From contig JBDRGY010000003.1 of the NCBI GenBank assembly GCA_043817315.1, positions 1 to 57,180 of the forward strand: DNA of 57,180 bases, written 5' to 3'. How positions within the stretch are numbered: position 1 is the first letter of the stretch; every line of letters starts with the position of its first letter. This DNA is from Patescibacteria group bacterium (GTDB lineage Bacteria > Patescibacteriota > Patescibacteriia > JBDRGY01). Made by a program: the position numbers and the translations under genes. The notes below the pieces were generated by a model. The model was not told the DNA's origin, did no database searches, and saw only the letters and a program-made list of their open reading frames with translations. Shown here in pieces: positions 14,678-43,493 of this stretch.

Positions 14678-16060
14678 ATGGCCGAGCGAATTGCTCTCTT
14701 CGGAGGCAGTTTCAATCCGCCTGGGATGCACCATCGTTTGGTGGTGGAGCGGTTGCTACAGTCTTTTGAACGAGTGGTGATCATCCCCTGTGGTTTCCGT
14801 CCCGACAAGGAAACGACTAATGATGTGGAACCGATCCACCGTGCGGTAATGGCTGATCTGGCTTTCGGAGATTTACCGGGAGCAGAAGTAGTCCTTGATG
14901 ATCTGGAACAGGGAATCTTCACCAGAACCCATCAGTTGGATCAGATTTACCGGGAACAGGGTGAGGTTTGGCATGTGGTTGGTGGCGATCTGATCAAGGA
15001 AGGTAAAGATCGTCGGTCGGTGATCCAGAGGGAATGGCAGAAAGGACCGCAGGTTTGGCAAGACTGCAATTTTGCAGTTGTAGCCCGGCCCGGATACCGC
15101 TATTCCCAGGATGATCTGCCGCCACACAACCAGATGATGACCCCGATTGTTGAAGGCTCCAGTTCGGAGATTCGACAGAGAGCGTTCAACCACTTGCCTT
15201 ATGGGGATCTGGTGACTGCTAGGGTGGCCCAATACATCGAGCGCTACGCTCTGTACCGGGGTCGCCCCCCCTATCATTCAGCCCGTTTCAGTCTGGAGGA
15301 GCCTCGTCCTTTTGTCTTCTGCGATACGCAGAACTCACGAGCCTGTGAGTTGGCCAGAGGACTTGATAGCTTCCCCAGCCCCAACTGTATTCTGGTCCTG
15401 GGCGGCGATGGTACTATGCTGCGGGCTATCCGTGAGCACTGGCGCCTGAGGCTGCCCTTTATCGGCATTAACCTGGGGCACTACGGATTCAAGCTCAACG
15501 AAGATGATGGTTCTATCATCGACGGTGACCAGGTTAGGCTGCAAGACTTGGTGATAAGAAACTTGCCCTTGCTCTACGTGCAGACTTCTGATAATCAGGG
15601 ATCTGTAACAGATCATCTGGCTTTCAATGACGTCTGGATAGAGAGACAAGGAGGCCAGACTGCCTGGATCGAAGTTGCGGTTGACAAGGTGGTGCGTCTC
15701 CACAAGCTAGTCGGTGACGGCGTACTGATTGCAACAGCGGCTGGTTCCACTGCCTATGCTAGTGCTATGGGTGCCTCGGCCTTGCCGGTTGACGCTCCGG
15801 TTCTGATCATGGCGGGATCCAACGTTTTCTCGCCGGCCGGCTGGAAAGTGGCCAACTTACCACTTGAGGCTGATATCGAACTACGCGGTTTGGACACCGG
15901 CAAGCGGCCCCTGGATGGCTTTGTGGACGGAGAGCCTCTAGGTGAAGTTGTCCGCCTGTGCGCCAGGATAAGTCGGACTGCTTCAGCCGAAGTGGCTTTT
16001 GTGCCTACTTATGATATTGCTGAGAAGCTGACTCGAATCCAGTTTCCGGAGGGAGGGTAA
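14678..16060 (+). CDS. Fusion of NMN/NaMN adenylyltransferase (NMNAT-like) and NAD kinase
   Basis: N-terminus: FGGSFNPPGMHHR, HRAVMADLA, SSSEIR. C-terminus: ILVLGGDGTMLRAI, NDVWIER, GDGVLIATAAGSTAYASAMGA (NadK motifs). Confidence 0.8.
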   Translation: MAERIALFGGSFNPPGMHHRLVVERLLQSFERVVIIPCGFRPDKETTNDVEPIHRAVMADLAFGDLPGAEVVLDDLEQGIFTRTHQLDQIYREQGEVWHVVGGDLIKEGKDRRSVIQREWQKGPQVWQDCNFAVVARPGYRYSQDDLPPHNQMMTPIVEGSSSEIRQRAFNHLPYGDLVTARVAQYIERYALYRGRPPYHSARFSLEEPRPFVFCDTQNSRACELARGLDSFPSPNCILVLGGDGTMLRAIREHWRLRLPFIGINLGHYGFKLNEDDGSIIDGDQVRLQDLVIRNLPLLYVQTSDNQGSVTDHLAFNDVWIERQGGQTAWIEVAVDKVVRLHKLVGDGVLIATAAGSTAYASAMGASALPVDAPVLIMAGSNVFSPAGWKVANLPLEADIELRGLDTGKRPLDGFVDGEPLGEVVRLCARISRTASAEVAFVPTYDIAEKLTRIQFPEGG

Positions 16061-16062
16061 CC

Positions 16063-16365
16063 ATGTCCAAGTCAGAACTGGCGGTGAAGTTGACCATTAA
16101 GCGGGAAGGTGACAACGTCTTTGTCATCGGTCTGCTTGGTCATCAGGGTGCTCTACAGATTGTGCCCAGCCTGCGTGACGAGGATTTGATCATCGAGCCG
16201 GGTGGACGGGCCCACCTGGAGTTCCGTACCATTACTCAGAAGCCGATGGTTCAGATCTGCCGCAGCGACGGTGAGGTAATACTGACCCGGGACCTGGATC
16301 GCGATGAGATTCTGATCACCTTCGATCCCTGGGATCATATCGCCTCGGTCCCCGTCTCCTGGTAA
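16063..16365 (+). CDS. Hypothetical 100-aa protein, tightly coupled to the fusion gene
   Basis: ATG 2 nt after the upstream stop, island-like G+C, no family recognised. Confidence 0.5.
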   Translation: MSKSELAVKLTIKREGDNVFVIGLLGHQGALQIVPSLRDEDLIIEPGGRAHLEFRTITQKPMVQICRSDGEVILTRDLDRDEILITFDPWDHIASVPVSW

Positions 16366-16379
16366 GAAGCTCTTCTCTT

Positions 16380-16426
16380 GTCTGGCAGTAGACCCTAGCG
16401 GGTTGCTGCCAGACAGATTATTTTTT
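16380..16426 (+). terminator. Rho-independent terminator
   Basis: GTCTGGCAG...CTGCCAGAC followed by TTATTTTTT. Confidence 0.7.
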
Positions 16427-16485
16427 CAGAAAAGGGTAACTAAATACTTGGTTATCGCTTTCTGGTCTCAAAGCGATTTGAGACT
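16425..16485 (+). promoter_or_regulatory. Island leader motif, copy 3
   Basis: TAACTAA-atac-TTGGTTA (16437-16454), then tcgctt, then TCTGG within GGTCTCAAA-gcga-TTTGAGACT (16464-16485). 56/61 identical to copy 4. Confidence 0.55.
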
Positions 16486-16537
16486 ATCGATCATTACAAT
16501 TGACAAGGATAAACCCCCAAGAACAGGGAGGAATAAA

Positions 16538-17326
16538 ATGGAGCAGAGATCTTCTGTTACCGTTCCTTCCTTGTTCATTCAGACAAGGGGGGAAGATTCG
16601 TTTAAGGTAGCACTGCAGCTGACCACAGCTGCCAGCCGGTTTGTAGTTAGACTAACCGGTGGTTGTGGTTACATGAGAGAAGCTGACGCTAGGGGGATGT
16701 ACGATCTGTTCAGGGGTGCCTTTGCTGGTTACCTGGGAGCTTTGCTCTTTGGGGGAACCAGAATGGTACGTAAAGACGATCACTCTGTGGTGGTGCCTGG
16801 GATTACAGAAGTAGCACCGCTAATCGGTCAACATTGCCCTGGTTCTATGGTTATGGGTGTCATTCCTCGCACTCAGGATCTCAAGGTTTCTGAAGCGGGG
16901 TTGATTGTCCACCAAGAACCAGACAACGACTTCCTGACCGTTATTCATCCAGACCAGCAGGTCTGTGTGGTGGTCCAGAAATCAGCTGACCAGGAAGTTC
17001 CCTGGGAGGCTGAATACCTGGAGTGCCTGCGGATTATGCATAATCTAAGGGAGCATGCCAAGTTTGCTTCTCTGCTTATCAGCTACAACGGCGGTTCAGT
17101 AACCGAGAAGGAAATCCTAGCAACCGCCAAACTAGGTTGGCCGGTTCTGCTGATCAACGGCAGCGGTCGAATCTCTGACCAGTATGCCAATGATCAAGAC
17201 TTCCTGGAGCAATACCCCAACGTAGCAGTGGCTTGGAGGGACGTTGCTTCGTTCCGAGAACAACTGGTTCGTTTGGGCGCTCTGCATGGCGTTAACCCTG
17301 AGTTATCCCAGGTTGAAAGGGGGTAG
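16538..17326 (+). CDS. SLOG-superfamily protein, TRPM-type (LSDAT-like), paralog 1
   Basis: Start moved from 16403 to the ATG behind SD gggagg, because the track extension covers the leader motif. Motifs: LTGGCG, LFGGTR, SYNGGSVTEKEI, WPVLLINGSGRISDQYA (compare TRPM GSGR.AD). Confidence 0.65.
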   Translation: MEQRSSVTVPSLFIQTRGEDSFKVALQLTTAASRFVVRLTGGCGYMREADARGMYDLFRGAFAGYLGALLFGGTRMVRKDDHSVVVPGITEVAPLIGQHCPGSMVMGVIPRTQDLKVSEAGLIVHQEPDNDFLTVIHPDQQVCVVVQKSADQEVPWEAEYLECLRIMHNLREHAKFASLLISYNGGSVTEKEILATAKLGWPVLLINGSGRISDQYANDQDFLEQYPNVAVAWRDVASFREQLVRLGALHGVNPELSQVERG

Positions 17327-17386
17327 GAAGGCGTATCACCTCTAGGCACTATAGGCCAAGGGAAGGGCTACAGAAAGGGAGGTTGT

Positions 17387-18166
17387 GTGAAAGGACCATA
17401 CGCGGTAACGGCACCAGGTGGCAAGCTCAACCTGATGGTGATGGATGCATCGGACGGTGTTCCTGCCGCTTTTGCCCTGATGGGCACCCTGGCCGAGCGC
17501 AAGGTAGCGCTGCGTCTAGGAGGCGGCTGCAAGGGTATGGACACCAACGACAAGGCAGCAATGCTGGCCTACTTCCGGGATGCCCTACGGGGCTTCAACG
17601 GCTTGATCTGGTCTGGCGGCACTCGTCAGGTCGATGGGAACGACCAGGTGAACCCCATGGTCACCGACGTGCCCGGCGTGATTGCCGCTGAGAACCCCGG
17701 CGCTGTGGCTCTGGGTACAGTACCCCGGGTCGAGATGCTGACCCTACAACAGGATTCCCGACTGGTTCTGGACCAGTGGGGCACCGTGCCCAATCCGACT
17801 ATGTCCGGTATCCTGGTGGTACAGAACGGCCCGGACGGTGAGTTGGACTGGGACGGCGATGTAGATACCTACATCGCCATGATGGAGAGCTGGCGTACCT
17901 ACGCTAACTTCACGGCCCTGGGCTTGGTCGCCTGGAACGGCGGAGCGGTCACCGAGCAGGAGATTATCAAGGCCGCCAGCAAGGGCTGGCCCGTGATCCT
18001 GATCAAGGGATCGGGTAGGGTGACCGACGAGATCGCCACCAAGCTGGCGGCGGACGATCCGGCGCTGATCGCCAAGCTACCGCAGGAGTTCAAGATCATC
18101 GTGGCCGACATCGCCGATCCCAACACGCTGCGAGTGGCCCTGACCGAGCACGGCTTCCTGGGATAG
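17387..18166 (+). CDS. SLOG-superfamily protein, TRPM-type (LSDAT-like), paralog 2
   Basis: GTG start behind gggagg. Motifs: LGGGCKG, WSGGTR, AWNGGAVTEQEI, WPVILIKGSGRVTDEIA. Collinear with paralog 1. Confidence 0.65.
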   Translation: MKGPYAVTAPGGKLNLMVMDASDGVPAAFALMGTLAERKVALRLGGGCKGMDTNDKAAMLAYFRDALRGFNGLIWSGGTRQVDGNDQVNPMVTDVPGVIAAENPGAVALGTVPRVEMLTLQQDSRLVLDQWGTVPNPTMSGILVVQNGPDGELDWDGDVDTYIAMMESWRTYANFTALGLVAWNGGAVTEQEIIKAASKGWPVILIKGSGRVTDEIATKLAADDPALIAKLPQEFKIIVADIADPNTLRVALTEHGFLG

Positions 18167-18180
18167 ACATTCTTGTCGAC

Positions 18181-18216
18181 AGGAGGAGGGGTGAGCATGG
18201 CTCATCCCTCCTACCT
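18181..18216 (+). terminator. Rho-independent terminator (weak T-tract)
   Basis: GGAGGGGTGAGC-atg-GCTCATCCCTCC followed by TACCTATTTATT. Confidence 0.5.
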
Positions 18217-18221
18217 ATTTA

Positions 18222-18282
18222 TTCAGAAAATGGTAACTAAATATTTAGTTATCGCTTTCTGGTCTCAAAGAGATTTGAGGCT
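18222..18282 (+). promoter_or_regulatory. Island leader motif, copy 4
   Basis: Perfect 18-nt palindrome TAACTAAATATTTAGTTA (18234-18251), then tcgctt, then TCTGG within GGTCTCAAA-gaga-TTTGAGGCT (18261-18282). Confidence 0.55.
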
Positions 18283-18346
18283 TGCGTACCTTACAATGTA
18301 GCTAAGTAGGAAAACACCTATGGCGACTAGCCAGGAGGTTAGTGTT

Positions 18347-19591
18347 ATGTTTGAGCCGATCATCCGCACCCTGATGGATATTGATTTCTACAAGTTCACT
18401 ATGGGACATCTGATTTTCCTGATTCCCAGCTACCGTCGTTTGCGCGTCAAATTCGCCTTCAGGAACCGCACCCCTGGCGTGGCTCTGGCCGATATTATGT
18501 CAGAAGAGGCTTTGCGTTGGCAGCTAGATCAGGCGATGACTCTGCGCTTCAACAACTCAGACTTGCATTACCTGCGGGGAACCAACGAGTACGGTCGTCG
18601 TATGTTCGACGAACAGTATTTGGAGTTCCTGCGGGGATACAGCCTGCCTTCTTATCACCTGGAGCGATCTGGCGACACCTATGTCCTGGAGTTCGAAGGC
18701 CCCTGGGCTGAGGTGACCTACTGGGAAACCATTGCCCTGGCTATCATCAACGAGCTGTACACTCAGGCAATGATCAGCGGCTTCAGCTCCTTCGATCAGG
18801 ATGTGGTCATGGCCGAAGGCCGGATGAGGCTGGCAGACAAGATCTCCAGACTGCGAGCGGCACCTTTCGACCTGACTCTCTCTGATTTCGGGACGCGACG
18901 TCGTTGGAGCCGGTTCTGGCAAGAATATGTAGTCAGGACTCTGGCCGAAGAACTGCCCCGTCATCTGCTGGGTACTTCTAACACCTGGCTGGCCATGAAG
19001 CTCGGCTTGCTGCCGATGGGCACCTCGGCTCATGAGCTGCCCATGGCTGTATCCGGACTGTTTCATGACAGCGACGAAGGGATTCTTCATTCCCAGATGC
19101 AGGTGCTGGATGACTGGTGGGAGCTTTACGGCGAAGGCCTGTCCATTGCCTTGCCTGATACCTATGGTACGGAATCGTTTTTCCGAGCCATGGGAGAGAA
19201 AAGGGCTAGGGACTGGAAGGGTACCCGCCAGGATTCAGGCGATCCCTTCGAGATTGGAGAGATGACCATTGCCTTCTACGAGGGCCTGGGCATCGATCCC
19301 AAGGACAAGCTGCTGGTGTTCAGCGACGGACTGGATGTGGATACCATACTGGCTCTGTTCGAGCGGTTCCAGGGCCGGATTCGTCCCACCTTTGGTTGGG
19401 GCACTAACCTGACCAACGATCTGGGCATTAAGCCGCTTTCTCTGGTGATCAAGGTGGTGGAGAGTAATGGCCACGGTACGGTCAAGCTGTCTGACAACCT
19501 GGCCAAGGCCATTGGAACGTCGGATGATGTGGAGCGTTTCAAGCACATCTTCGGCTACACCAAGAACACCTACACCCCAGTTACCTACTAG
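18347..19591 (+). CDS. pncB: Nicotinate phosphoribosyltransferase
   Basis: Collinear with E. coli-type PncB: DFYKFTM, DFGTRRR, GTSN, MGTSAHE, RQDSGDP, VFSDGLD, GWGTNLT, KLSDN. Start placed at the ATG 8 nt after AGGAGG; the track start at 18320 adds 9 aa. Confidence 0.9.
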   Translation: MFEPIIRTLMDIDFYKFTMGHLIFLIPSYRRLRVKFAFRNRTPGVALADIMSEEALRWQLDQAMTLRFNNSDLHYLRGTNEYGRRMFDEQYLEFLRGYSLPSYHLERSGDTYVLEFEGPWAEVTYWETIALAIINELYTQAMISGFSSFDQDVVMAEGRMRLADKISRLRAAPFDLTLSDFGTRRRWSRFWQEYVVRTLAEELPRHLLGTSNTWLAMKLGLLPMGTSAHELPMAVSGLFHDSDEGILHSQMQVLDDWWELYGEGLSIALPDTYGTESFFRAMGEKRARDWKGTRQDSGDPFEIGEMTIAFYEGLGIDPKDKLLVFSDGLDVDTILALFERFQGRIRPTFGWGTNLTNDLGIKPLSLVIKVVESNGHGTVKLSDNLAKAIGTSDDVERFKHIFGYTKNTYTPVTY

Positions 19592-19600
19592 GCTACAACT

Positions 19601-19647
19601 GGTGGGAGAGAAACCTCGCGTTTCCCTCCCACCACAATATTTTCTTC
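19601..19647 (+). terminator. Rho-independent terminator
   Basis: GGTGGGAGAGAAAC-ctcgc-GTTTCCCTCCCACC followed by a T-rich tract. Confidence 0.6.
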
Positions 19648-19753
19648 TGACTATACCCCCTTACTTATTAAGAGGTTGCAGTGAGGAGGAAAGTAGATCA
19701 TTCACAAACGGATTCTCAGTTCAGCTGAGAATCAAAGGAAAGGAGCCAATCTG

Positions 19754-20692
19754 ATGGCTTGGTTGACTATGGACGAAATTCCCAGCTTCCTGCGGATTGA
19801 TGCGAAAAAGGAAGTCGAGATCATCGTACAGAGGATGACAGAGTTCCGAGACCGAGAACTTCTCATGACTGGCAAAGAGAAAATGGCCATTGTCTTGGGG
19901 CTTTCCGGGGGCCTGGACTCTGCCGTCGTTTGTCGTCTCTGGACGGAAGTGGTTGGCCCGGAGAACGTCTATCCGGTGATCATGCCCGGTCCTACTTCCA
20001 ATAGTGACAGCGACGATCTGGCCCGGCTACTGGCCATTAGACTGCAGACACCACAAGCAAATCGGGTCAAACTGCCGATTTCTGAGGCTGATATTACTCA
20101 CGCCCTGGGTGCGGATCTGGATTCCGAGGGTCCGGGCGGCCTGACGCGTCGCGGTAATGTGATGGCCCGGTTGAGGATGCTACGACTGAGAGATCGAGTG
20201 TCTCAGCTGGCCGAGGAGCATCCAGAAGTGATGTTCCGACTGGCCGGAACCGAGAACGCTTCGGAGCACTGGATGGCTTTCTTCACCATCTCTGGCGACC
20301 AGTCATCAGATATTGAGATACTGACCGGTTACCTGAAGACACAGGTCTGGCAGTTGGGTAAGCACTTCTGCCTTTCTCCAGAGATCCTGGATCGGGATCC
20401 TTCGCCGGAGCTGGGAGACTGCCAGACGGATGAAGAGGCCCTGCCCTCGGTTTACTGGCAGGTTGATTCGGTACTTTTCCACTTGCTGCGGATGGGAGAC
20501 GATCCGGCGGATGTACGCCGCATGCTCCGGGAAGAGAAGCTCAGGGATCTGCTGGAGCTGGTGCATTCACCTCTCCACACCTTTATCCAGTACGACACCG
20601 CTGAGCGGATCCTGCAGTGGATCATCGACCACCTGGGCAAGCTGGAGATTCCCTATGAGTTAACCGGGGATCGGTTGTACCACCAGAGTTAG
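19754..20692 (+). CDS. nadE: NH3-dependent NAD+ synthetase
   Basis: PP-loop GLSGGLDS, GNVMARLRM, GTENASE....FFT..GD...D...L.GL.K, DPSPEL. Confidence 0.75.
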   Translation: MAWLTMDEIPSFLRIDAKKEVEIIVQRMTEFRDRELLMTGKEKMAIVLGLSGGLDSAVVCRLWTEVVGPENVYPVIMPGPTSNSDSDDLARLLAIRLQTPQANRVKLPISEADITHALGADLDSEGPGGLTRRGNVMARLRMLRLRDRVSQLAEEHPEVMFRLAGTENASEHWMAFFTISGDQSSDIEILTGYLKTQVWQLGKHFCLSPEILDRDPSPELGDCQTDEEALPSVYWQVDSVLFHLLRMGDDPADVRRMLREEKLRDLLELVHSPLHTFIQYDTAERILQWIIDHLGKLEIPYELTGDRLYHQS

Positions 20693-20701
20693 GAGGTCAA
20701 G

Positions 20702-21136
20702 ATGGCACTTGATGCCAGTACTCATGTGGTCAGGCTTCTCCGCTGCTCTTTCTGCGGCAGCTATCATGGTAGTACCAAGGAAGCGGAAAGACACGGTTGC
20801 CTGGCCGGTGAACTTCCGAAGGACTTCACGGTCGGCGATCGGGTGATCGCCGACTTCACCGTCGGTGAGGGAATGTCTGCAGTTGGCCACCAGAAGGTTG
20901 TCGGAGTGATCAAGGAGATTGCCCCGCCGCACAGTGAGGAACTGAAGCCTGAGCTGACTGTACAGCGACCTCCCTGGGCACCTCCTGGTATCGGTATCCA
21001 GCCCTTTCCCATCCAGGCTCCCCTTAAGCTTCATGAGTGGGTGGCCCTGGTTGAGCCGACTGAGCAACCAGAAGAACCACGCTACATTCGGGAGGAGAGG
21101 TTTTTCTTTTCTGATCTGATACCCGCTGAGGGTTAG
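20702..21136 (+). CDS. Hypothetical protein (144 aa)
   Basis: SD aggagg, island-like G+C, N-terminal CSFCG...H..C possible metal site, no family recognised. Confidence 0.5.
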   Translation: MALDASTHVVRLLRCSFCGSYHGSTKEAERHGCLAGELPKDFTVGDRVIADFTVGEGMSAVGHQKVVGVIKEIAPPHSEELKPELTVQRPPWAPPGIGIQPFPIQAPLKLHEWVALVEPTEQPEEPRYIREERFFFSDLIPAEG

Positions 21137-21150
21137 AAGATCGTATTACA

Positions 21151-21180
21151 AGGAGCGCAAAGCAACGCGCTCCTTTTTCT
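21151..21180 (+). terminator. Rho-independent terminator
   Basis: AGGAGCGC-aaagcaac-GCGCTCCT followed by TTTTCTTTT. Confidence 0.75.
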
Positions 21181-21185
21181 TTTCC

Positions 21186-21214
21186 TTGACGGATAATTAT
21201 CATATTGATAAGGT
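21186..21214 (+). promoter_or_regulatory. Promoter with an embedded 10-bp palindrome
   Basis: TTGACG-N17-TAAGGT. The GATAATTATC palindrome sits directly after the -35. Confidence 0.5.
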
Positions 21215-21297
21215 AATAAACTGTCCTTTTAACCAGGGGCGCTGAGAGGCAGCCCCCGCTCTGGAGACGGAGCGAGTCCTTCGAGAGGAGGAGGCAG

Positions 21298-22101
21298 ATG
21301 GCAAGAACGTGTGACCTGGCACTGGCCCAGTGGCATCTTTTCGGTCGTAAGGTCGATAAACTGAGCCTCAGGGTCCATACCCTGTTGTCGCGAGTAGGAC
21401 AGCCAGGTGGACCCAAAACCGTTGAGGATATCTACGACGACGTTATCCAAGCCTGTTTTACAATCAGGCCTGATGGAACCCCGCTGGAAAGCGTGGAGCG
21501 AATTGCCACCATCTTTGTGGCAGTAGCTGAGGCCAATTCCGATTTGGCTCACCACTGGCTGAGGAAGGTGGATTCCTCTATCGCGGAAGGAGTACCCGAA
21601 GGCAAGATCAATTCCAACTACGTCTTCGGCATGCTCTTGGGTATCTTCCGGGCGGCGGCCCAAATCGACAGCAGCCGTTGTGATCTGCCGGAATTCAAGA
21701 AACAGATGCCCCATGTAGTTCTCAGTATGATTAAGGAGTGGAAGCACGGGGTACCTAGAGACGACAGATGGACCCTACGTGAATTCGGCCGCAAGTATCC
21801 TGGGCTACTTTCAGAATCGATCAAGAAGTGGGTAGGCATGGCCTGGAACAGAATGAACACCCTGAGAGTTTATCGCCAGACTGACTTGCATTTGATCATG
21901 CTGGAGCTGGACAGGTGGTTGTCCCAACGACCACATCCCAAGCTTTCTGCGTTTACCTCTCTGATTGTCAACGAGCTGACTGGAGCTCAGTTTGTGAGAG
22001 GGGATGCCCGTAATAGGGCCCTCATCTTAGCTCACTGGGAACAGAAGCAGGATGACGAAGTGAGAGCCAGAGGGGAAGTTGAGAAAGGCGAAGATTCATA
22101 G
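21298..22101 (+). CDS. Hypothetical helical protein (267 aa)
   Basis: SD gaggagg, island-like G+C, no family recognised. Confidence 0.5.
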   Translation: MARTCDLALAQWHLFGRKVDKLSLRVHTLLSRVGQPGGPKTVEDIYDDVIQACFTIRPDGTPLESVERIATIFVAVAEANSDLAHHWLRKVDSSIAEGVPEGKINSNYVFGMLLGIFRAAAQIDSSRCDLPEFKKQMPHVVLSMIKEWKHGVPRDDRWTLREFGRKYPGLLSESIKKWVGMAWNRMNTLRVYRQTDLHLIMLELDRWLSQRPHPKLSAFTSLIVNELTGAQFVRGDARNRALILAHWEQKQDDEVRARGEVEKGEDS

Positions 22102-22110
22102 TTCCTTCAG

Positions 22111-22138
22111 CGGGCAACTGGATAGTTGCCCGTTTTTT
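22111..22138 (+). terminator. Rho-independent terminator
   Basis: CGGGCAACT-ggat-AGTTGCCCG followed by TTTTTT. Confidence 0.8.
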
Positions 22139-22206
22139 ATATATAAAAAATGCCATAAAATTGGCATCTTTTTGGGCCTTGAGCCCGTCGTTCGCGAACG
22201 ACGGGC

Positions 22207-22234
22207 TTGACAAAATAAAAATATGTGCTAAGAT
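22207..22234 (+). promoter_or_regulatory. Promoter of the lipoprotein gene
   Basis: TTGACA-N16-TAAGAT. The -35 is overlapped by the perfect 24-bp palindrome GCCCGTCGTTCGCGAACGACGGGC. Confidence 0.5.
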
Positions 22235-22292
22235 GGCCTGTTCGGCAATTTGCGGAATAATAGCCTAATAACACCGAAGGAGGGTACAGACG

Positions 22293-22850
22293 ATGAAGCG
22301 AGGATTGTGGCTATTACTGCTGATCGGCCTGGTAGTCGTCTGTCTGTTCGGCTGCATGCCGGAGGTGGAACAGCCGACAGACCGGCAGACCATTGCTGCT
22401 GTCATTAGCCGACCGGATGAGTGTCTGACTGACAAGCTGACCGAGTACAAAGGTGGCGTTGTTGTCCAGATGCACAAGAAGGGCAATAAGGCCATCGTAG
22501 TGGTGGCCCCGCTGCCCCTTCCTGATCTCCAGGAAAAAGGACAGTCGGCTAAGCGTTTATTGGTCGTCAGTATTCCGTCTTGGCAGTTCGGGGACCTGAG
22601 CATCGGGTCGATCATCAAGGCCACGGGTCGCCTGAAAACTATCGACCTTCAAAGCAGGACCATGTTCTACGTCGATGCTGCAGACGTTGAGGTGATCGAC
22701 CAGATCGACATCCATATGCCTGATTTCATGGCTATCACCGATGCTCTGATGCCTGATGGCAGTGGCTCCAACGACGACGACTTCTTCCTGATGCCCTTTA
22801 TGAACTCTCTCAATCCAACCCAAGATCTCTTGGACGATGACGGTTGGTAA
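22293..22850 (+). CDS. Putative lipoprotein (185 aa)
   Basis: Signal peptide with lipobox LFGC. Last G+C-rich gene of the island. Confidence 0.55.
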   Translation: MKRGLWLLLLIGLVVVCLFGCMPEVEQPTDRQTIAAVISRPDECLTDKLTEYKGGVVVQMHKKGNKAIVVVAPLPLPDLQEKGQSAKRLLVVSIPSWQFGDLSIGSIIKATGRLKTIDLQSRTMFYVDAADVEVIDQIDIHMPDFMAITDALMPDGSGSNDDDFFLMPFMNSLNPTQDLLDDDGW

Positions 22851-22876
22851 GAGAAACTTGGCGAGTTTCGGCTCGC

Positions 22877-22911
22877 GACCATTCAGTCAAGTGACTGGGT
22901 GGTCTTTTTTT
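22877..22911 (+). terminator. Rho-independent terminator at the right edge of the island
   Basis: About 12-bp stem (GACCATTCAGTC..GACTGGGTGGTC, includes G-U pairs) followed by TTTTTTT. Confidence 0.7.
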
Positions 22912-22969
22912 GTAACAAAAAACCACCCTGATTAGGGATGATTTTTTGATAAAAGCTTTTATCAAGCAG

Positions 22970-23110
22970 CTAGAGTACCCACCAGATAACTAGACCAATA
23001 ATGACCAGAGCTATGATAATCCCCCACATCATACCGGCTGATGATTTTTTTGGTTTTTGTTCCGCTGGCTGCTCTGCTTGAGGTTGTTGCTGTGGTTGTT
23101 GTTCGTCCAT
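22970..23110 (-). CDS. Small membrane protein (46 aa), paralog of the N-terminal module of 7931..8503
   Basis: Not in the track. MDEQQPQQQPQAEQPAEQKPKKSSAGMMWGIIIALVIIGLVIWWVL. Shares a 21-nt identical DNA stretch and the first 10 nt with the 5' end of the gene at 8503. Confidence 0.45.
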   Translation of the reverse strand: MDEQQPQQQPQAEQPAEQKPKKSSAGMMWGIIIALVIIGLVIWWVL

Positions 23111-37975: not shown

Positions 37976-38287
37976 ATGCAAAAAAGCTGCTGTCAAGCAA
38001 ATTCCTCCCAAAGTCAGAAGATCAAACAAACATCCTCGTTTATAAGGTTGCTCAATGAACCAAATCGTTTGCGGATCCTCTGTCTCTTAAAGCAAGGGGA
38101 GTTGTGCGTTTGTGAGATATTCCAAGCCCTCAATTTGCCCCAAAATCTGACTTCCCACCACCTCAAAGTATTAAAGGATTTTGGTTTGATTTCTTCAAAA
38201 AAAGAGGGCCTGAAAGTTTTTTATAAATTAAACCGAGCCATATTAACAAGATATGCGGAATCATTAAATAAATTATTTAAACAATGA
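37976..38287 (+). CDS. arsR: ArsR/SmtB-family metalloregulator
   Basis: R..IL.LL..GELCVCE....L......SHHLK.L...GL motif. Confidence 0.85.
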   Translation: MQKSCCQANSSQSQKIKQTSSFIRLLNEPNRLRILCLLKQGELCVCEIFQALNLPQNLTSHHLKVLKDFGLISSKKEGLKVFYKLNRAILTRYAESLNKLFKQ

Positions 38288-38580
38288 AAAGACAATCAAT
38301 TCAAGTTTTGGGCTCTGGCTGCCCGACTTGCAAACAGCTCTTAGAAACTACTAAAAAAATTGCCAAAGAATTAAACATTGATACAGAAATTGAATATATC
38401 ACCGATGTGGCCAAATTAGTGGAAATGGGCGTAATGACCAGTCCCGCCTTAGCTGTTAATGGTAAACCGGTTTTAAGCGGAGGCGGCCATAGCGAAAACG
38501 ACATCAGGCAAGCCTTACAAAATAACTCCAGTCAAGAAAACGACGTTTCGACCGGTTGCTCTTGTGGTGGTAAATGTTAA
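38284..38580 (+). CDS. Thioredoxin-fold protein (redox-active disulfide protein 2 type)
   Basis: GSGCPTCK motif and a C-terminal CSCGGKC. Overlaps the arsR stop by 4 nt. Confidence 0.7.
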   Translation: MKRQSIQVLGSGCPTCKQLLETTKKIAKELNIDTEIEYITDVAKLVEMGVMTSPALAVNGKPVLSGGGHSENDIRQALQNNSSQENDVSTGCSCGGKC

Positions 38581-38595
38581 TTTAATCTATTAATT

Positions 38596-39576
38596 ATGGA
38601 TATATTTAGACCTGTTCAAATATTGGCTGATACGGCCACTAACAATTGGTTGGGCATCACTGATCATTATTGGGGTGAAGCCATCAATTTTTTTATTTAT
38701 GATGTAATCAAAATTGGTTTGCTTTTGATTGTGATAAATTTCGTTATGGCTATTACTCGTTACTATTTTCCAGTTGAAAAAATAAGAAGTATTTTAACGG
38801 GCCGTAAATGGTATGGTCTCGATTATTTCTTTGCCGCCCTGCTGGGAGTAATAACGCCTTTTTGCTCCTGCTCTTCCATCCCTTTATTTATCGGGTTTGT
38901 CAGCGCCGGCATACCTTTGGGCGTAACCTTCGCTTTTCTGATCGCTTCGCCGCTGGTCAACGAAGCTTCGCTTTTTATTTTCCCTTCTATTTTCGGGCTG
39001 AAGATGACCTTAACTTATAACAGTATCGGTATCGCCATTGCCATGCTGGCGGGGATGGTTATCCAAAGGTTAAAAATGGACAAGAATGTCAATCAAAATT
39101 TTCTGAAATTTAAAACCCAAAAGGAAGCCGTTAAAGATAACCAGGGCAGGGCCATTCCTTTAAAGAAAAGGCTGAAAATCTGGTGGCAGGACGGCCTGCA
39201 CATCTCCAAAAGCATCTTCCCCTACGTGATAGCCGGTGTCGGCTTAGGTGCTTTAATTCACGGATTTGTCCCCAGAGATTTTGTGGAAACATATTTGTCG
39301 ATAAAAGATTGGTGGGCAGTTCCAATGGCAGTGATTTTGGGAATGCCTCTATATGCAAATTCAGTAAGTGTAATTCCTGTTGTCGAAGCTATGACTGGCA
39401 AAGGCATACCACTTGGTACCTCTCTGGCTTTTATGACTGCCACAGTAACCCTGTCAATCCCCGGACTCTTAATTCTCAAAAAAGCTATGAACTGGAAATT
39501 ATTATCCGCCTTTATAGTTATTACAGCAATAGGGATTATGATTATTGGTTACTTTTTTAATTTCTTTAATTTTTAG
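38596..39576 (+). CDS. Permease (COG0701/ArsP-like)
   Basis: About 8 TM helices with a conserved TPFCSCSSIP motif. The context beside arsR and the thioredoxin-like gene is typical. Confidence 0.65.
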   Translation: MDIFRPVQILADTATNNWLGITDHYWGEAINFFIYDVIKIGLLLIVINFVMAITRYYFPVEKIRSILTGRKWYGLDYFFAALLGVITPFCSCSSIPLFIGFVSAGIPLGVTFAFLIASPLVNEASLFIFPSIFGLKMTLTYNSIGIAIAMLAGMVIQRLKMDKNVNQNFLKFKTQKEAVKDNQGRAIPLKKRLKIWWQDGLHISKSIFPYVIAGVGLGALIHGFVPRDFVETYLSIKDWWAVPMAVILGMPLYANSVSVIPVVEAMTGKGIPLGTSLAFMTATVTLSIPGLLILKKAMNWKLLSAFIVITAIGIMIIGYFFNFFNF

Positions 39577-39584
39577 ATAACAAT

Positions 39585-40031
39585 ATGCTGAAAAAATCAC
39601 TTTTTCTTTTCTTATTAAGTTTATCTGTTTTAATTCTTGCCGGTTGTGGTCAAACAGGTGGTAATCAATCGGTAGAAAGTAGTTCAGTCGATCTTGGGGC
39701 CGACAGAATTGAGGTTGTTCATTTTCACGCCACTCAGCAGTGTTGGTCGTGTATTACGGTTGGGGAACTTGCCTTGAAGACAATTCAAGAAAAATTTCCA
39801 GAGGAATATAAAAATGGACTTATTGTTTTTAAGGACATTAACGGCGAACTGCCGGAAAACAAAAACATTGTAATTAAATATCAAGCTAGTGGCTCATCGC
39901 TTTTTATTAACGCAATTACAAACGGAAGTGATAACATTCAAGAAGATACGACTGTTTGGCGCTATGTTTCCAATGAGACTCAATTCATTAACTATTTAGA
40001 AAATATATTAAAAACTCTTTTAGGCAAATGA
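39585..40031 (+). CDS. Lipoprotein with a CxxC motif (thioredoxin-like)
   Basis: Lipobox LAGC and CWSC. Confidence 0.5.
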   Translation: MLKKSLFLFLLSLSVLILAGCGQTGGNQSVESSSVDLGADRIEVVHFHATQQCWSCITVGELALKTIQEKFPEEYKNGLIVFKDINGELPENKNIVIKYQASGSSLFINAITNGSDNIQEDTTVWRYVSNETQFINYLENILKTLLGK

Positions 40032-40035
40032 CACG

Positions 40036-40752
40036 ATGGATTTTATCAATGTTTTAATAGACAATTACAATATTCCTATTGCAACTTCTTTCTTATTGGG
40101 AATTTTGACCTCAATAAGTCCCTGCCCCCTTGCTACAAACGTCACGGCTGTTGCCTATATTTCTAAAGAAATAAAGACGGTCAAAAACACTTTGCTTAAT
40201 GGCTTGTATTACACTTTGGGTCGGGGCATTAGCTACACGCTTTTGGCTACTTTAATTTATTTCGGCTTGTCATCGTTTCAGATTTCGGGAATTTTTCAAG
40301 GTTGGGGCGACAAAATTTTGGGACCCGTTTTGATTATTATCGGCCTGATAATTTTCGGAGTGATAAAGATCAAACTCAACGGACACAACCAGAAGATTGA
40401 AAATCTGAAAGAATGGCTGGCCGGCAAAGGATATATTGGCTCGTTGCTTTTGGGAGTTTTATTTGCTTTGGCTTTTTGTCCTTATAGCGGAGTTATATTC
40501 TTTGGTATATTGATGCCTTTGATTTTACGATCTAGCGAGGGTTTGTTACTGCCCCCTTTGTTTGCCCTCGGAACGGGACTGCCTGTAATAATTTTTTCAT
40601 TTCTGATTGCTTTTAGTATGCAAAAAGTGAGTAAAGCCTTCCAAGTCGTTCAGAGGGTAGAAAAGTTTATGCGGTATGCTGTTGCTTCCATATTTATTAT
40701 TACAGGGATTTATTATTTGCAGATTTTATTCAGATATTTAGCAAACTTGTAA
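40036..40752 (+). CDS. CcdA/DsbD-family thiol-disulfide transporter
   Basis: Six TM helices with SISPCPL and FCPYS motifs. Confidence 0.6.
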   Translation: MDFINVLIDNYNIPIATSFLLGILTSISPCPLATNVTAVAYISKEIKTVKNTLLNGLYYTLGRGISYTLLATLIYFGLSSFQISGIFQGWGDKILGPVLIIIGLIIFGVIKIKLNGHNQKIENLKEWLAGKGYIGSLLLGVLFALAFCPYSGVIFFGILMPLILRSSEGLLLPPLFALGTGLPVIIFSFLIAFSMQKVSKAFQVVQRVEKFMRYAVASIFIITGIYYLQILFRYLANL

Positions 40753-40851
40753 TAATTTGAACACTCATAATAAAAACACCTCCTATTTTAAAGGAGATGT
40801 TTTTTCCTTTGACTTCGAACACTTTGGTTCAGAGGCAAAGGTCCCTACCGA

Positions 40852-40866
40852 TCGCTTATTTTAACT
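40852..40866. repeat. Inner 15-bp direct repeat, right copy
   Basis: tcgcttattttaact, overlapping the acr3 stop codon. Confidence 0.8.
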
Positions 40867-41935
40867 AATTTGATGAGGATGTCGGAAACTGAAACTGTTT
40901 TTGATGGCGTTTCATTATACCAACAAGAGAAAGCATTACAGGAACTTCCACAAGTACGCCAACAACTGTAGCAAGTGTTGCACCCGAATTCATCCCAAAA
41001 AGGATAAGAGCAACTGCAACTGAAAGTTCAAAAAAATTGCTAGCTCCGATGAATACTGATGGAGCAGCCTCTTTGAATGAAATCTTTAATTTCCTTGCTC
41101 CAAGATACCCAAGGTAAAAAATAATGTATGTTTGTAGTACTAATGGAATTGCAATAAGTAGAATGTGAAGCGGATGTTGAATAATTCTTTCTCCTTGAAA
41201 GATGAAAAGTAAAACAAGCGTAACAAGTAAACCAGCTGGTGTGACCCATTCAATTTTTTTAATAAATTTTTCTTCAAGCCACGAAACACCTATTTTATGT
41301 ATAGTGATAAAACGTGTTGCCATGGCCAATCCGAGTGGTAGAGCTACATAGAATAGTATTGAGAAAAAAATCGTATCCAGAGGCACTGGAAAATCAGTTG
41401 TTACTCCAAGGAGTAATTTTCCAAGTGGTGCAAATAAGATAAGTATTATTAAATCATTAACTGTGACTTGCATTAGTGCATAGTTAAGATTTCCTCGTGC
41501 TAAATATGTCCAAACAAAAACCATAGCTGTGCACGGCGCTAAGCCTAGTAGAATCATACCGGCAATGTACTCGCTTTGAAGTGCCACCGGAATAAAGTTG
41601 GCAAAAATAAACCTCATAAATAGCCAGGCAATAAAGGCCATCGTAAACGGTTTGATGGCCCAGTTGACAACTAACGTAAGCCAGAGCGGTTTTGTATTAT
41701 TGCGTAGTTTTTTTATCTCACCAAAATTTATCTTAAGCATAATCGGATACATCATCAAGAGAAGCACTATAGCAACCGGAATTGAAACGTTTGCAATCTC
41801 AAAAGAACCCAGTGTGTTAGAGATTCTTGGAAAAGAATATCCAATAGCTGTGCCAATTGCTATACAGAGGAATACCCACAATGACAGGTATCGATTGAAG
41901 AAATCAATTTTTCTTTCGTCTTCGAATTCTTTCAT
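40865..41935 (-). CDS. acr3: Arsenite efflux transporter ACR3
   Basis: The N-terminus (FFNRYLSLWVF) and the 10-TM layout are typical of ACR3. Start moved to MKEFEDE, 6 nt after TGGTATAGT. Confidence 0.8.
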   Translation of the reverse strand: MKEFEDERKIDFFNRYLSLWVFLCIAIGTAIGYSFPRISNTLGSFEIANVSIPVAIVLLLMMYPIMLKINFGEIKKLRNNTKPLWLTLVVNWAIKPFTMAFIAWLFMRFIFANFIPVALQSEYIAGMILLGLAPCTAMVFVWTYLARGNLNYALMQVTVNDLIILILFAPLGKLLLGVTTDFPVPLDTIFFSILFYVALPLGLAMATRFITIHKIGVSWLEEKFIKKIEWVTPAGLLVTLVLLFIFQGERIIQHPLHILLIAIPLVLQTYIIFYLGYLGARKLKISFKEAAPSVFIGASNFFELSVAVALILFGMNSGATLATVVGVLVEVPVMLSLVGIMKRHQKQFQFPTSSSN

Positions 41936-41941
41936 AGTTTT

Positions 41942-41950
41942 ACTATACCA
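41942..41950 (-). promoter_or_regulatory. Extended -10 promoter (TGGTATAGT) 6 nt from the acr3 ATG
   Basis: Minus strand reads hairpin-TTTTTTGGTATAGT-aaaact-ATG. It is a duplicate of the 37742 module. Confidence 0.55.
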
Positions 41951-41976
41951 AAAAACCATCCTAACAAATAGCATGG

Positions 41977-41995
41977 TTTTTTGATGGGGTGGCTA
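41977..41995. repeat. Right 19-bp direct repeat of the arsenic island
   Basis: Identical to 37782-37800. Confidence 0.85.
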
Positions 41996-42024
41996 GAGGG
42001 AATTGAACCCTCATCACCAGTGCC
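41985..42024 (-). pseudogene. Orphan 3' half of a second tRNA-His (anticodon loop to CCA)
   Basis: 39/40 identical to 42091-42130. The single change (G to A in CUAGCCACC) is complementary to the change in the 5' fragment at 42238-42299. Confidence 0.7.
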
Positions 42025-42090
42025 ATCCCGCAACCAGTCGCTACGCTCCGGTGCGGGACAGGCAGACTTCGTATCCAGAAAGGTGGCCAC

Positions 42091-42166
42091 TGGGGTGGCC
42101 AGAGGGAATTGAACCCTCATCACCAGTGCCACAGACTGGTGCACTAACCATTGTGCTATGGCCACC
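42091..42166 (-). tRNA. tRNA-His (GUG), with encoded G-1 and CCA
   Basis: Hand-folded cloverleaf: G-1, GUGGCCA/UGGCCAC acceptor, GCAC/GUGC D stem, CCAGU-CUGUGGC-ACUGG anticodon arm, GAGGG-UUCAAUU-CCCUC T arm, C73-CCA. Confidence 0.9.
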
Positions 42167-42237
42167 TTTCTGGATATAAGTTTATAATATACTTGTGCCC
42201 TGCCCTGAACTGCGAGCGGTAGTGAGCTAGTTTAGGG

Positions 42238-42299
42238 ACTAACCATTGCCCGCCTCGCGTCGGCTCGCAACGCGAGTCGAGGCGGGTGCTATAGCCACC
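42238..42299 (-). pseudogene. Orphan 5' part of the second tRNA-His, carrying a 38-nt G+C-rich hairpin in the D arm
   Basis: GGUGGCUAUAGCA, then the insert 42249-42286 (CCCGCCUCG...CGAGGCGGG), then CAAUGGUUAGU. Similarity to the intact gene ends after that point. Confidence 0.65.
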
Positions 42300-42352
42300 A
42301 TAATAGTAACTTAGAATAAAAAATACAAAATGTAAAATGTCATTATTTGTTT

Positions 42353-43198
42353 CTATGCACGAAAATACCTTTTGAAATCTTTCTTTTTTTGTTCATCCCA
42401 ATCACGTGATTTTTCTTCCCACGATCCTGTTGCTTTGTCAATGGTCTCTTGATCTAAACCAGAAAATTTGTCTATTATGACGCCAAGTTCAGCACCAAGA
42501 CCAGCTTCCAATAAGGCGTTGGCGATTTCTGGGTGATCCGACTCTTGGAAATTAAAGTTGTCAAAATATCCTATAATATTAGCAGATTCTCCCACTCCCG
42601 CCTTTCCCGCCTCTATTATTTTAAGAGCGGTATCTTTGTGATTAAGGCCTGGAAATTTTTCTAAATTTCTAAGAACTACTCCTCCTTGACCGACACCAAT
42701 TAGATTGGTAGCAGCTTCTTCTGAATCAAGACCTTGAAATTTTTCCAGATTATCTTCTATCGCCATTGCTATCTGTTTAGCTTTAGCAGGATTGCTTTTT
42801 ATTTCTTCAATCAATAGCGAAAAAGCCGCTCGATGGTCAGTGCCTCTAAATTTATCTATATTTGCGGGTACCGTTTCCCCATGCTTTGATTCTATAAGCG
42901 CTCGAATAAAATCTGGATGATCATTTTCATCAAAATGTTTTAGATTATTAAATAAGGGTGCACCACCAAAAAGCCAGGCAAGATTTAAGCCGAATTCTTT
43001 ATGTAGAGCAGGATCCAATTCACGAAGGATAGGTTTCACTTGGAAAATTGCTCTTGAATAACCTTCATTCTGCAGATAATTCATAACCTTACCGATAGAC
43101 TTTCTCTGTTCTTCGGTCAATTCATTTTGGTCGGTTGGTGTTTGTTCTCCAGTTAATTCATCAGGATTAACCAGTTGTTGTTCTGGCTTTTCAGGCAT
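42353..43198 (-). CDS. Hypothetical repeat protein (281 aa)
   Basis: Reiterated ~35-aa units (..KF.GLD/N....A..LI..G.G..). No family recognised. Confidence 0.5.
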   Translation of the reverse strand: MPEKPEQQLVNPDELTGEQTPTDQNELTEEQRKSIGKVMNYLQNEGYSRAIFQVKPILRELDPALHKEFGLNLAWLFGGAPLFNNLKHFDENDHPDFIRALIESKHGETVPANIDKFRGTDHRAAFSLLIEEIKSNPAKAKQIAMAIEDNLEKFQGLDSEEAATNLIGVGQGGVVLRNLEKFPGLNHKDTALKIIEAGKAGVGESANIIGYFDNFNFQESDHPEIANALLEAGLGAELGVIIDKFSGLDQETIDKATGSWEEKSRDWDEQKKKDFKRYFRA

Positions 43199-43218: not shown

Positions 43219-43365
43219 TCGTCTGGTACCCTCGAGAGCCCGCCTACTCCCACGTCCGCGGGATTCGGCGGATCTCCGCTGCGCTCCGAGAATCTCACTT
43301 TCCGCCCGACTCGCCTGGTACCCTCGAGAGGAATCCCCGCCAGAGGCGGGTCCGCCGTACCTTTT
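43219..43365. repeat. G+C-rich structured segment with two 16-nt direct repeats
   Basis: CTGGTACCCTCGAGAG occurs at 43223-43238 and 43315-43330. CCCGCC...GGCGGG hairpins are present. TCGTCTGGTA also matches the 3' end and trailer of tRNA-Arg at 43415-43424. Confidence 0.5.
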
Positions 43366-43418
43366 ACATCTAAATTTAAAGTGGCGGAGAACCTCTCGTA
43401 TTTAGATTTTTTATCGTC

Positions 43419-43493
43419 TGGTATCCCCAGTAGGAATCGAACCTACATCTAGGGCTTAGAAGGCCCTCGTTCTATCCATTGAACTATGGGGAC
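43419..43493 (-). tRNA. tRNA-Arg (UCU), with encoded CCA
   Basis: Hand-folded: GUCCCCA/UGGGGAU acceptor, AGGGC-CUUCUAA-GCCCU anticodon arm, GUAGG-UUCGAUU-CCUAC T arm. Confidence 0.9.

Follow-up and report, generated by a model that had tools for sequence, protein, structure and literature searches.

The window analyzed here, the whole 57,180-nucleotide (nt) stretch of contig JBDRGY010000003.1 (assembly GCA_043817315.1) of a Patescibacteria group bacterium, harbors an intact tRNA-His(GUG) gene (42166-42091; this and all the other tRNA-related features of the window described below lie on the minus strand) nested between the pieces of a second, disrupted tRNA-His gene (42299-42238 and 42025-41985), and this nest is probably (at a rough estimate of 0.6, judged from sequence comparison) the fossil of a mobile, tRNA-carrying cassette of the homing-endonuclease type that has lost its nuclease gene. 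The best-supported element of this reading is that a cassette bearing its own tRNA-His landed within the anticodon stem of the resident gene, after C27. The evidence comes from an exact parse of the old and the new gene within the window, from the same junction being occupied differently in close relatives (loci other than the window are referred to by numbers with the prefix L), and from a recurrent pairing of small nuclease genes with tRNA genes across distant lineages.

The two genes are recognizable by their repeats: a 41-nt direct repeat (41985-42025 versus 42091-42131) differs by the single mismatch A67/G67, the 5' part recurs as blocks of 14 nt (42299-42286) and 11 nt (42248-42238) with the single mismatch U6/C6, and a 25-nt pattern of the tRNA-His 3' end matches twice in the window, with none of 100 shuffles giving any match. 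A first-pass annotation of this DNA, made from its letters, had divided the minus strand into a 5' fragment, a spacer, the complete tRNA-His gene and a 3' fragment, all of which were found where it had placed them, save that the 3' fragment, given as 42024-41985, actually begins with U35 at 42025; the ARAGORN check that it had proposed, as well as Rfam, calls the intact tRNA-His(GTG) at 42165/6-42091. Read from its 5' end, the old gene begins with piece E1 (42299-42287; 13 nt, positions -1 to 12, GGTGGCTATAGCA, carrying U6), which is homologous, upstream region included, to the outer 5' fragment of L179/L180, is interrupted within the D-loop, between positions 12/13 and 14, by the 38-nt G+C-rich hairpin insert H1 (42286-42249), continues with piece E2 (42248-42238; 11 nt, positions 13-23, CAATGGTTAGT, from the repeat search and the parse), is interrupted again between positions 23 and 24 by the 39-nt hairpin-forming insert H2 (42237-42199), and then supplies a third piece, GCAC (42198-42195; 4 nt, positions 24-27), which constitutes the left junction of the 125-nt cassette (42194-42070). 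Beyond the cassette lie a probable, albeit uncertain, fourth piece, AAGTCTG (42069-42063; 7 nt, positions 28-34, with A28 replacing C28), the 37-nt G+C-rich hairpin H3 placed by the parse between G34 and U35 (42062-42026), and piece E5 (42025-41985; 41 nt, positions 35-76 including CCA, carrying A67), identified by both the repeat search and the 3'-end pattern. A terminator common to the whole nest, a hairpin followed by a U-run (41983-41949), was detected as an inverted repeat and is homologous to the sequence found 3' of tRNA-His in L177, L179 and L181.

Joined, the five pieces measure 76 nt, which equals the length of the inner gene, from which they differ only at positions 6, 28 and 67, and ARAGORN calls the joined sequence tRNA-His(GTG) with one A28·G42 mismatch; the old gene is, in other words, essentially complete, but cut by three hairpin inserts (38, 39 and 37 nt) and the 125-nt cassette. 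GCAC lies 39 nt past the 5' piece and AAGTCTG 37 nt ahead of the 3' piece, and in a shuffle test the coverage of at least 10 of the 11 missing nt by two ordered blocks anywhere had p = 0.028, while the presence of both blocks at 37-39-nt offsets had p = 1.5e-5, the latter test having been picked post hoc, after the sizes had been seen. The GCAC block is corroborated by L179, which reads GGTTAGTGCAC uninterrupted, and by L181, which has a similar clean insertion two positions off; the parse is firmer for H2/GCAC than for AAGTCTG/H3, because AAGT overlaps the trailer motif CTGGRTASGAAG that is conserved in relatives. A second AAGT opens the cassette on its left (42194-42191), and the two occurrences may represent a 4-nt target duplication. 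Most of the twelve anticodon-arm nucleotides previously listed as missing are accordingly present, as GCAC and AAGTCTG, and the 71 nt taken to be unrelated sequence resolve into the 39-nt hairpin insert, GCAC and a 28-nt leader conserved in relatives. The idea that both fragments derive from one former gene held: U6:A67 is kept in both, and the same state is seen in L177, L179, L113, L165 and others, which makes the fragments fossils of an ancestral allele and the inner C6:G67 pair the derived one (both U6:A67 and C6:G67 occur in normal metagenome tRNA-His genes, where they are always correctly paired).

The cassette itself is made up of a 28-nt leader (42194-42167), the 76-nt tRNA and a 21-nt trailer. 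The leader is A+T-rich, contains the conserved motif ATATTnnAAAC and is homologous to the leaders in L181 and L177, and its final 10 nt (42176-42167, TATCCAGAAA) form the 5' arm of a covarying leader/trailer helix. The inner tRNA-His, with G-1, C6:G67 and an encoded CCA, is presumed to be the working gene: it scores 70.7 bits in Rfam against the RF00005 gathering threshold of 29, and its identity can be read directly from the GUG anticodon, G-1 and C73, as is also indicated by the ARAGORN call, tRNA-His(gtg). The encoded CCA is supplied by a 12-nt near-tandem duplication of the tRNA 3' end (42093-42082, CCAGTGGCCACC), which was found by the repeat search and is absent from L177 and L181, and the trailer closes with TTTCTGGATA, the 3' arm of the helix, followed by CG (42081-42070). 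The acceptor stem is prolonged in L177 and L181 by perfect pairing between the 10 nt that precede G-1 and the 10 nt that follow C73, and the window has the same 10-bp helix (TATCCAGAAA with TTTCTGGATA) once the 12-nt duplication is set aside; as GGTGGCCACC is self-complementary, the duplication lengthens the window's repeat to 18 nt (42072-42089/42159-42176), so that the perfect inverted repeat reported earlier is real, but one nucleotide longer than the 17 nt it was given.

Nor is this repeat a one-off, its core being the leader/trailer helix, which compensatory changes have preserved in three lineages. In the alignment of just these three sequences (the window, L177 and L181, with the window's duplication removed by hand), 100% of the positions are paired, eight of the ten pairs have changed on both sides, and none of 500 shuffles is as good. 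It is thus the complementarity, and not the sequence, that has been maintained, which speaks for selection on a structure of the RNA (or of single-strand DNA), although template switching, by correcting the palindrome, could also have preserved it. The helix accompanies the nuclease-free tRNA-His copies at the junction (the window and two close relatives), and the other 147 tRNA genes of the loci and the window show a leader/trailer complementarity of at most 8 nt, with the 18-nt repeat being unique.

Close relatives of the locus were found by a search with the neighboring Xer protein, which returned four proteins with 88-92% identity to the one of the window, all on short contigs, and the comparison of the locus in relatives, likewise suggested by the first-pass annotation, revealed homologous nests with the same junction in L181 and L179/L180. 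In L181, the outer 5' fragment GGTGACCATAGCACAATGGTTA, interrupted at 21/22 by 23 nt that consist of a 19-nt hairpin and CAAG, runs into GTGCACC, after which come a leader homologous to that of the window, an intact tRNA-His and its trailer, then G+C hairpins, 15 nt of the outer 3' fragment and the same terminator as in the window. L179/L180 share the outer 5' fragment with the window, a homologous H1 included, and read GGTTAGTGCAC without H2, yet at the very same junction they carry a TTGACA-17-TAAAAT promoter, an open reading frame (ORF) of 158 aa with a C-terminal HNH motif and, 6 nt later, a very different intact tRNA-His, and L179 has no outer 3' piece. In L177, only CAC of the outer gene is left, next to a lone tRNA-His gene that has U6:A67. 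On its left, the cassette thus joins GTGCAC in L179, GTGCACC in L181 and CAC in L177, and the site after C27 is occupied by an HNH cassette in L179 and by a nuclease-free cassette in the window, L181 and L177; the suggestion that an insertion brought a tRNA gene with it is borne out by this, since either the 125-nt cassette or the HNH gene together with a different tRNA-His follows C27. The short contigs of the relatives break inside the nests, and this, along with the presence/absence polymorphism at one site, fits an active mobile element. The outer gene, decaying differently in L179, L181 and L177, is by the same comparison evidently a pseudogene.

The HNH protein of L179 belongs to a family with 458 homologues, some of which are named HNH endonuclease by NCBI. 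When 32 family members were scanned against Pfam, 27 matched HNH_3, 23 HNH and 16 TRASH zinc fingers; the residues H-H-D-N-N-C-H-H are invariant in family members, and the family weakly matches the HNH domains of IscB, ZorE, YajD and a group II intron maturase. Nuclease ORFs were found at the tRNA genes of L179, L182-184 (with the same pnp-Xer synteny), L185-194 (Woesebacteria, beside HisRS), L171 and L195-202, and in every HNH context read the gene ends between a 4-nt overlap with and about 11 nt upstream of an intact, same-strand tRNA-His, the pairing thereby extending from L179 to four further lineages of the candidate phyla radiation (CPR). In L182 and L171, the HNH cassette is preceded by a 5' fragment of a different tRNA-His, reaching G37, and the 100 nt upstream of the HNH gene align over five lineages as a tRNA-His D-arm fragment, TTTA-TCCACAG, TTGACAT, about 17 nt, TAtAAT and ATG. 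A separate observation concerns the junction of the resident tRNA-His 5' fragment with the HNH cassette in L182 (~2430-2460) and L171 (~1478-1500), where the anticodon sequence CTGTGG is followed within 3-6 nt by its complement, CCACAG or CCACAA, giving a small hairpin; the CCACAG motif remains upstream of the HNH gene where the anticodon part has been lost (L179, L196), and the hairpin could be either a break-repair footprint or a nuclease operator.

The pairing of nucleases with tRNA genes extends to tRNA-Arg: a GIY-YIG ORF lies upstream of tRNA-Arg in L195/196, flanked by interrupted tRNA-Arg copies, and GIY-YIG homologues stand directly 5' of tRNA-Arg in three lineages (L195/196, L088/L129 and L171). 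Within the window, the intact tRNA-Arg(UCU) (43419-43493, called by ARAGORN and Rfam), the upstream member of the conserved Arg-His tandem, is directly followed on its 3' side by a G+C-rich region of about 200 nt (43219-43413) that has no Rfam match and holds two units that each close with the 3'-terminal sequence of a different tRNA-Arg allele, CTCTCGAGGGTACCAGRCGA (43330-43311 and 43238-43219), the first unit containing a double hairpin of about 52 nt in an apparent T-loop (UUC-insert-GAUUCC). These two units are, as judged against the relatives, the remains of an equivalent nest: L177 and L179/L180 still possess the 5' half of the other tRNA-Arg allele, cut in its anticodon by a leader and an intact tRNA-Arg, and the matching 3' end, CTCTCGAGGGYACCA, downstream, the leader being complementary; L179 additionally has a 41-nt hairpin insert in the 5' half (missing in L177) and a further outer copy. 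A full interrupted tRNA-Arg 3' of the window's intact gene was also considered and rejected, as its spliced alignment was no better than those of shuffles and only the 3' ends are left. In L008 (~1045-1135 of the oriented segment), a 23-nt copy of the tRNA-Arg 3' end, GTTCGATTCCTAGCAGGGGTACA, is located about 64 nt past the intact gene with partly G+C-rich filler in between, which amounts to the same phenomenon on a small scale in a CPR lineage that is only distantly related.

As for the hairpin inserts of the old tRNA-His gene, H1 folds at -23 kcal/mol (z = -3.2), pairing from first base to last, and H3 folds stably at -18.6 kcal/mol, both being largely self-contained hairpins, whereas H2 folds weakly (-9.6 kcal/mol) and leaves a 4-nt 3' tail unpaired. 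A homologue of H1 with identical ends and a 20-nt internal indel occupies the same site in L179 and is absent from the outer fragment of L181; H2 is specific to the window's lineage, because L179 reads through the site and L181 has a different insert at 21/22. The three inserts cannot be aligned with each other, have no further copies in the window or in 176 loci and, when compared with repetitive extragenic palindromes and miniature inverted-repeat transposable elements (REP/MITE), show no target duplications, although a CCCGCC/GGCGGG stem recurs in hairpins of the window, L177, L179 and L181. Such inserts vary between relatives within fragments that are already dead, and the hairpins of 37-39 nt are secondary, lineage-specific insertions into dead pieces. 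The notion that H2 is a remnant of the left end of the L179 cassette (TTCAGGGCAGG resembling TTCCACAGGGCGG) was rejected, because in L181, as in the window, the tRNA sequence picks up exactly at the position where the insert had interrupted it, as would be expected of clean insertions at two separate sites. A further observation in L181 is the hairpin CCCGCCGTATGGCGGGG, which is found directly 5' of both the tRNA-Arg and the tRNA-His 3' fragments (1618-1640 and 1886-1908), implying that hairpin modules are copied between tRNA-Arg and tRNA-His nests.

An ancestral U6:A67 gene stood at this site with its own upstream region and terminator; now split into flanking pieces, it can no longer make a tRNA, and its function is presumably supplied by the cassette copy. 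The cassette may have arrived as follows: a nuclease would cut those tRNA-His alleles that lack the nuclease gene, within the anticodon arm or close to it, and when the break is repaired on the template of a genome with the cassette, the nuclease gene and a linked tRNA copy would both be brought in; the cassette of the window would either have lost its nuclease gene afterwards or owe its presence to a nuclease provided in trans. RNase P and 3' processing probably free the inner tRNA from a transcript that extends to the terminator of the old gene, and the covarying leader/trailer helix may clamp the new tRNA ends or serve as a site for a double-strand RNase. The link to homing endonucleases is drawn from the shared junction, the recurrent nuclease-tRNA pairing, the presence/absence pattern, the contig breaks within nests and the precedent of phage T4 SegB.

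Several observations weigh against it. The window contains no HNH or GIY-YIG homologue by tblastn, and its leader is unrelated to the L179 cassette, which leaves the shared junction and locus as the grounds for deriving it from a nuclease cassette per se. The inner and outer genes differ by 3 nt, so the inner one does not stand out as a variant resistant to cleavage (divergence from the displaced fragments is far greater in the tRNA-His genes that are linked to nucleases in L179, L171 and L182). The Pfam scores of the L179 HNH protein itself are below the gathering threshold, the cleavage activity and target site of the family are putative, and small GIY-YIG proteins need not be homing enzymes. 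The conserved order of 5' fragment, HNH gene and tRNA-His could partly reflect vertical inheritance instead of repeated mobility, and a promoter consensus scan passed none for either tRNA-His copy. A broader generalization can be put forward only tentatively, as rather less than an even bet: that CPR bacteria harbor a widespread and hitherto undescribed class of selfish cassettes (a small nuclease, of the zinc-finger HNH type where tRNA-His is the target and of the GIY-YIG type where tRNA-Arg is, coupled to its own copy of the target tRNA) that overwrite essential single-copy tRNA genes by landing inside them and leave nested fossils behind, the dead pieces of which are then colonized very densely (at least five separate insertions over roughly 100 nt in four close relatives) by short G+C-rich hairpins apparently homing on tRNA-like sequence, and that the helix is perhaps a new pre-tRNA processing or insulating signal.

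Among the other explanations, a local rearrangement not involving any mobile element, in which slippage, template switching or break repair interleaved one tRNA-His gene and left the hairpins and the inverted repeat as footprints, is unlikely, even if the mere 3 differences in 76 positions between the inner and outer genes, the 12-nt tandem duplication with a perfect palindrome built on self-complementary sequence and the possible AAGT duplication at the cassette ends would all sit well with it. The inner leader is unrelated to the outer upstream region, which is not what a simple duplication leaves, and the same architecture, with nuclease genes at the junction, is repeated in several lineages and at another tRNA gene. 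Serial integrations by a tyrosine integrase at the anticodon loop and the 3' end, with partial tRNA copies and a later near-complete deletion leaving attachment (att)-like repeats, had been named by the first-pass annotation as one of two options and are less likely still. A 41-nt direct repeat from the anticodon loop to CCA is the classical extent of a tRNA att site, a tyrosine recombinase gene is situated 1.2 kb off, and tRNA-Arg 3'-end repeats lie downstream of the intact tRNA-Arg both here and in L008, but only 66 nt separate the 41-nt repeats and these hold no element genes and no integrase, integration at a 3' end does not yield a 5' fragment upstream of the intact gene, and the nests of relatives hold HNH or GIY-YIG genes rather than integrases. 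The recombinase was itself tried as the integrase of the element and ruled out by synteny: the order pnp-NYN-S15-Xer-tRNA-Arg-tRNA-His is conserved across many CPR loci, where the two tRNA genes are usually plain and adjacent, so the gene is a chromosomal neighbor and not part of an inserted element. The succession of Xer, tRNA-Arg and tRNA-His genes is the ancestral arrangement, and normally a simple one.

It is also conceivable that the outer gene is functional and that the hairpins and the cassette represent a new type of bacterial tRNA intron, removed from the RNA as in multi-intron archaeal tRNAs, given that the joined pieces make a full-length tRNA-His with all stem pairs but one intact, that the three short inserts are precise, hairpin-forming, 37-39 nt long and free of target duplications, and that the pieces are nearly devoid of point mutations. 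This is, however, highly improbable, and the earlier verdict that a simple intron is unlikely stands: an Rfam scan of 41850-42450 with E-values of up to 10 found no group I, other intron or ribozyme family, no bulge-helix-bulge was seen at the junctions (read by eye, with no dedicated search tool run), the joined tRNA would carry the A28·G42 mismatch, and the outer gene has decayed to different extents among relatives (no 3' piece in L179, 15 nt of it in L181, CAC in L177). The hairpin inserts likewise vary within dead fragments, as does the 41-nt tRNA-Arg insert found in L179 and not in L177, and ARAGORN, run with no intron search, recognized 148 uninterrupted tRNA genes in the loci and the window, with inserts of this kind being confined to dead fragments. 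Finally, that two strain variants of tRNA-His were misinterleaved by the assembler is barely credible: the window is probably a metagenome-assembled contig and the contigs of relatives do break in the region, yet independent assemblies from the European Nucleotide Archive and the Joint Genome Institute (L179/L180 from the samples ERZ27252253 and 3300028920, L181 from 3300018065 and L177 from ERZ23498665) have homologous nests that agree in their junctions and in the H1 insert, and collapsed strain variants leave the unique inserts between the repeats unexplained. The relatives thus effectively exclude both the intron and the artefact explanation.

Compared with known systems, the nest combines familiar traits in an unfamiliar way. 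Integrative elements at tRNA genes restore the 3' part of the gene and leave attL/attR repeats, and the nest resembles them in its direct repeat from the anticodon loop to CCA and in a foreign copy restoring the function of a disrupted tRNA; it departs from them in that the incoming DNA holds a complete tRNA gene, that a 5' fragment is left as well, and that there is no integrase-bearing element. RNase III stems flank bacterial rRNAs as leader/trailer processing stems, and here, too, a long helix, kept by compensatory change, joins the 5' and 3' sequences of a stable RNA, although it flanks a single tRNA, continues its acceptor stem and was not seen in the other 147 tRNA genes examined. The first of the two closest precedents is SegB of phage T4, a free-standing GIY-YIG homing endonuclease located among tRNA genes, which recognizes tRNA-gene sequence, has a site that includes the T-psi-C motif and drives the inheritance of itself and of the neighboring tRNA genes (Brok-Volchanskaya et al. 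2008, PMC2330249). Similarly to SegB, the small HNH and GIY-YIG genes of this study abut tRNA-His and tRNA-Arg and are variably present among close relatives; the differences are that the host is a cellular CPR chromosome and not a phage, that the cassette sits inside the same resident tRNA gene as a full replacement copy with nested 5' and 3' pseudogene pieces left around it, and that the window copy has no nuclease gene, with the cleavage by the HNH family being putative. The second precedent, the tRNA-Thr locus of Caldiarchaeum subterraneum, where a recombinase-encoding mobile element disrupts a tRNA gene and bulge-helix-bulge introns are spliced by EndA, is comparable in its population heterogeneity at one tRNA locus, the split and multi-intron archaeal tRNAs being a related case (Sugahara et al. 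2012, PMC3293823). The present locus differs from it in being bacterial, in showing no bulge-helix-bulge, in having a dead interrupted copy and in its associated genes, which are HNH/GIY-YIG nucleases.

In literature searches, neither nuclease-tRNA cassettes nor nested tRNA genes were found to have been described for CPR bacteria, and the locus looks like a decayed, nuclease-free form of free-standing homing-endonuclease biology, apparently in a new variation. CPR genomes are tiny and usually have one gene per tRNA, so a tRNA-cutting mobile element would survive in them only by bringing along a replacement; a cassette of this kind would be a gene-drive-like solution, none of which is described for cellular tRNA genes in the literature searched. 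If the reading of the nest as a homing-type cassette fossil is true, fragmented and nested bacterial tRNA genes would be explained without introns, a bacterial counterpart to the archaeal models of tRNA gene disruption would be at hand, and a small nuclease family with tRNA-gene specificity would be added, together with the leader/trailer helix as a candidate processing signal. The locus is also a warning to annotators: in metagenome-assembled CPR genomes, pieces of tRNA genes, and assemblies that break close to such genes, can reflect genuine biology.

Regarding the wider surroundings, the pnp and Xer homologues place the window within Patescibacteria/CPR, and the neighbors of the nest are ACR3 and ArsG (of an arsenic cluster), a 281-aa ORF, tRNA-Arg(UCU), the Xer-like tyrosine recombinase, S15, the NYN protein and PNPase. 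A scan of genome contigs with pnp gave L001 as the closest relative (86%), the contig of which ends at pnp, and exact look-ups of the window proteins ORF281, ACR3 (with two start codons) and pnp found none on record. No blastn match of the locus was obtained among 50,697 phage records, and the tRNA 3'-end pattern had no match in viral contigs; the 25-nt tRNA-His 3'-end pattern was found in metagenomes at 96 loci, all of them a single plain gene, none nested and none near the window.

Several minor observations were made alongside. The 281-aa ORF (42353-43198, minus strand), located between the tRNA-Arg and tRNA-His nests, contains a repeated motif resembling N-[LI]-[ED]-K-F-x-G-[LT]-[DN]; it matched nothing in Pfam or NCBIfam, metagenome contigs yielded no relatives of it, and its absence at this position in L177, L179 and L181 implies an insertion specific to the window's lineage. 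In L179, a direct repeat of about 75 nt (3189-3262 and 3957-4038), consisting of the tRNA-His 3' end CCCCA, the hairpin ATCGCCTCGCTGAAGTCTTCGGCGAAGCGGG and the terminator, flanks a 173-aa ORF of unknown function, which looks like a further insertion targeting the tRNA 3' end and terminator, and in L177 a gene for a 23S rRNA intervening-sequence protein (PF05635; 248-808) is found just 5' of Xer, replacing the S15 side of the synteny on this short contig of the closest relative. Elsewhere in the window, a block of about 13 kb (~10000-23000) has a G+C content of 50-58% as opposed to about 40% in the rest, suggesting horizontally acquired DNA. The arsenic-resistance cluster (37976-41974; ArsR, a thioredoxin-like protein, a permease, ArsG and ACR3) is placed directly downstream of the tRNA-His terminator, the true start of ACR3 probably being the ATG at 41935 and not the one at 41974. 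Lastly, the stretch of about 40 nt that follows tRNA-His (AACGGTATCTAATATAACCGAGTYCGGTTGATTRGAT) is conserved in several CPR loci that otherwise diverge (L007 6985-7020, L117 ~953-990, L083 and L137) and may be an undescribed small RNA or processing element.

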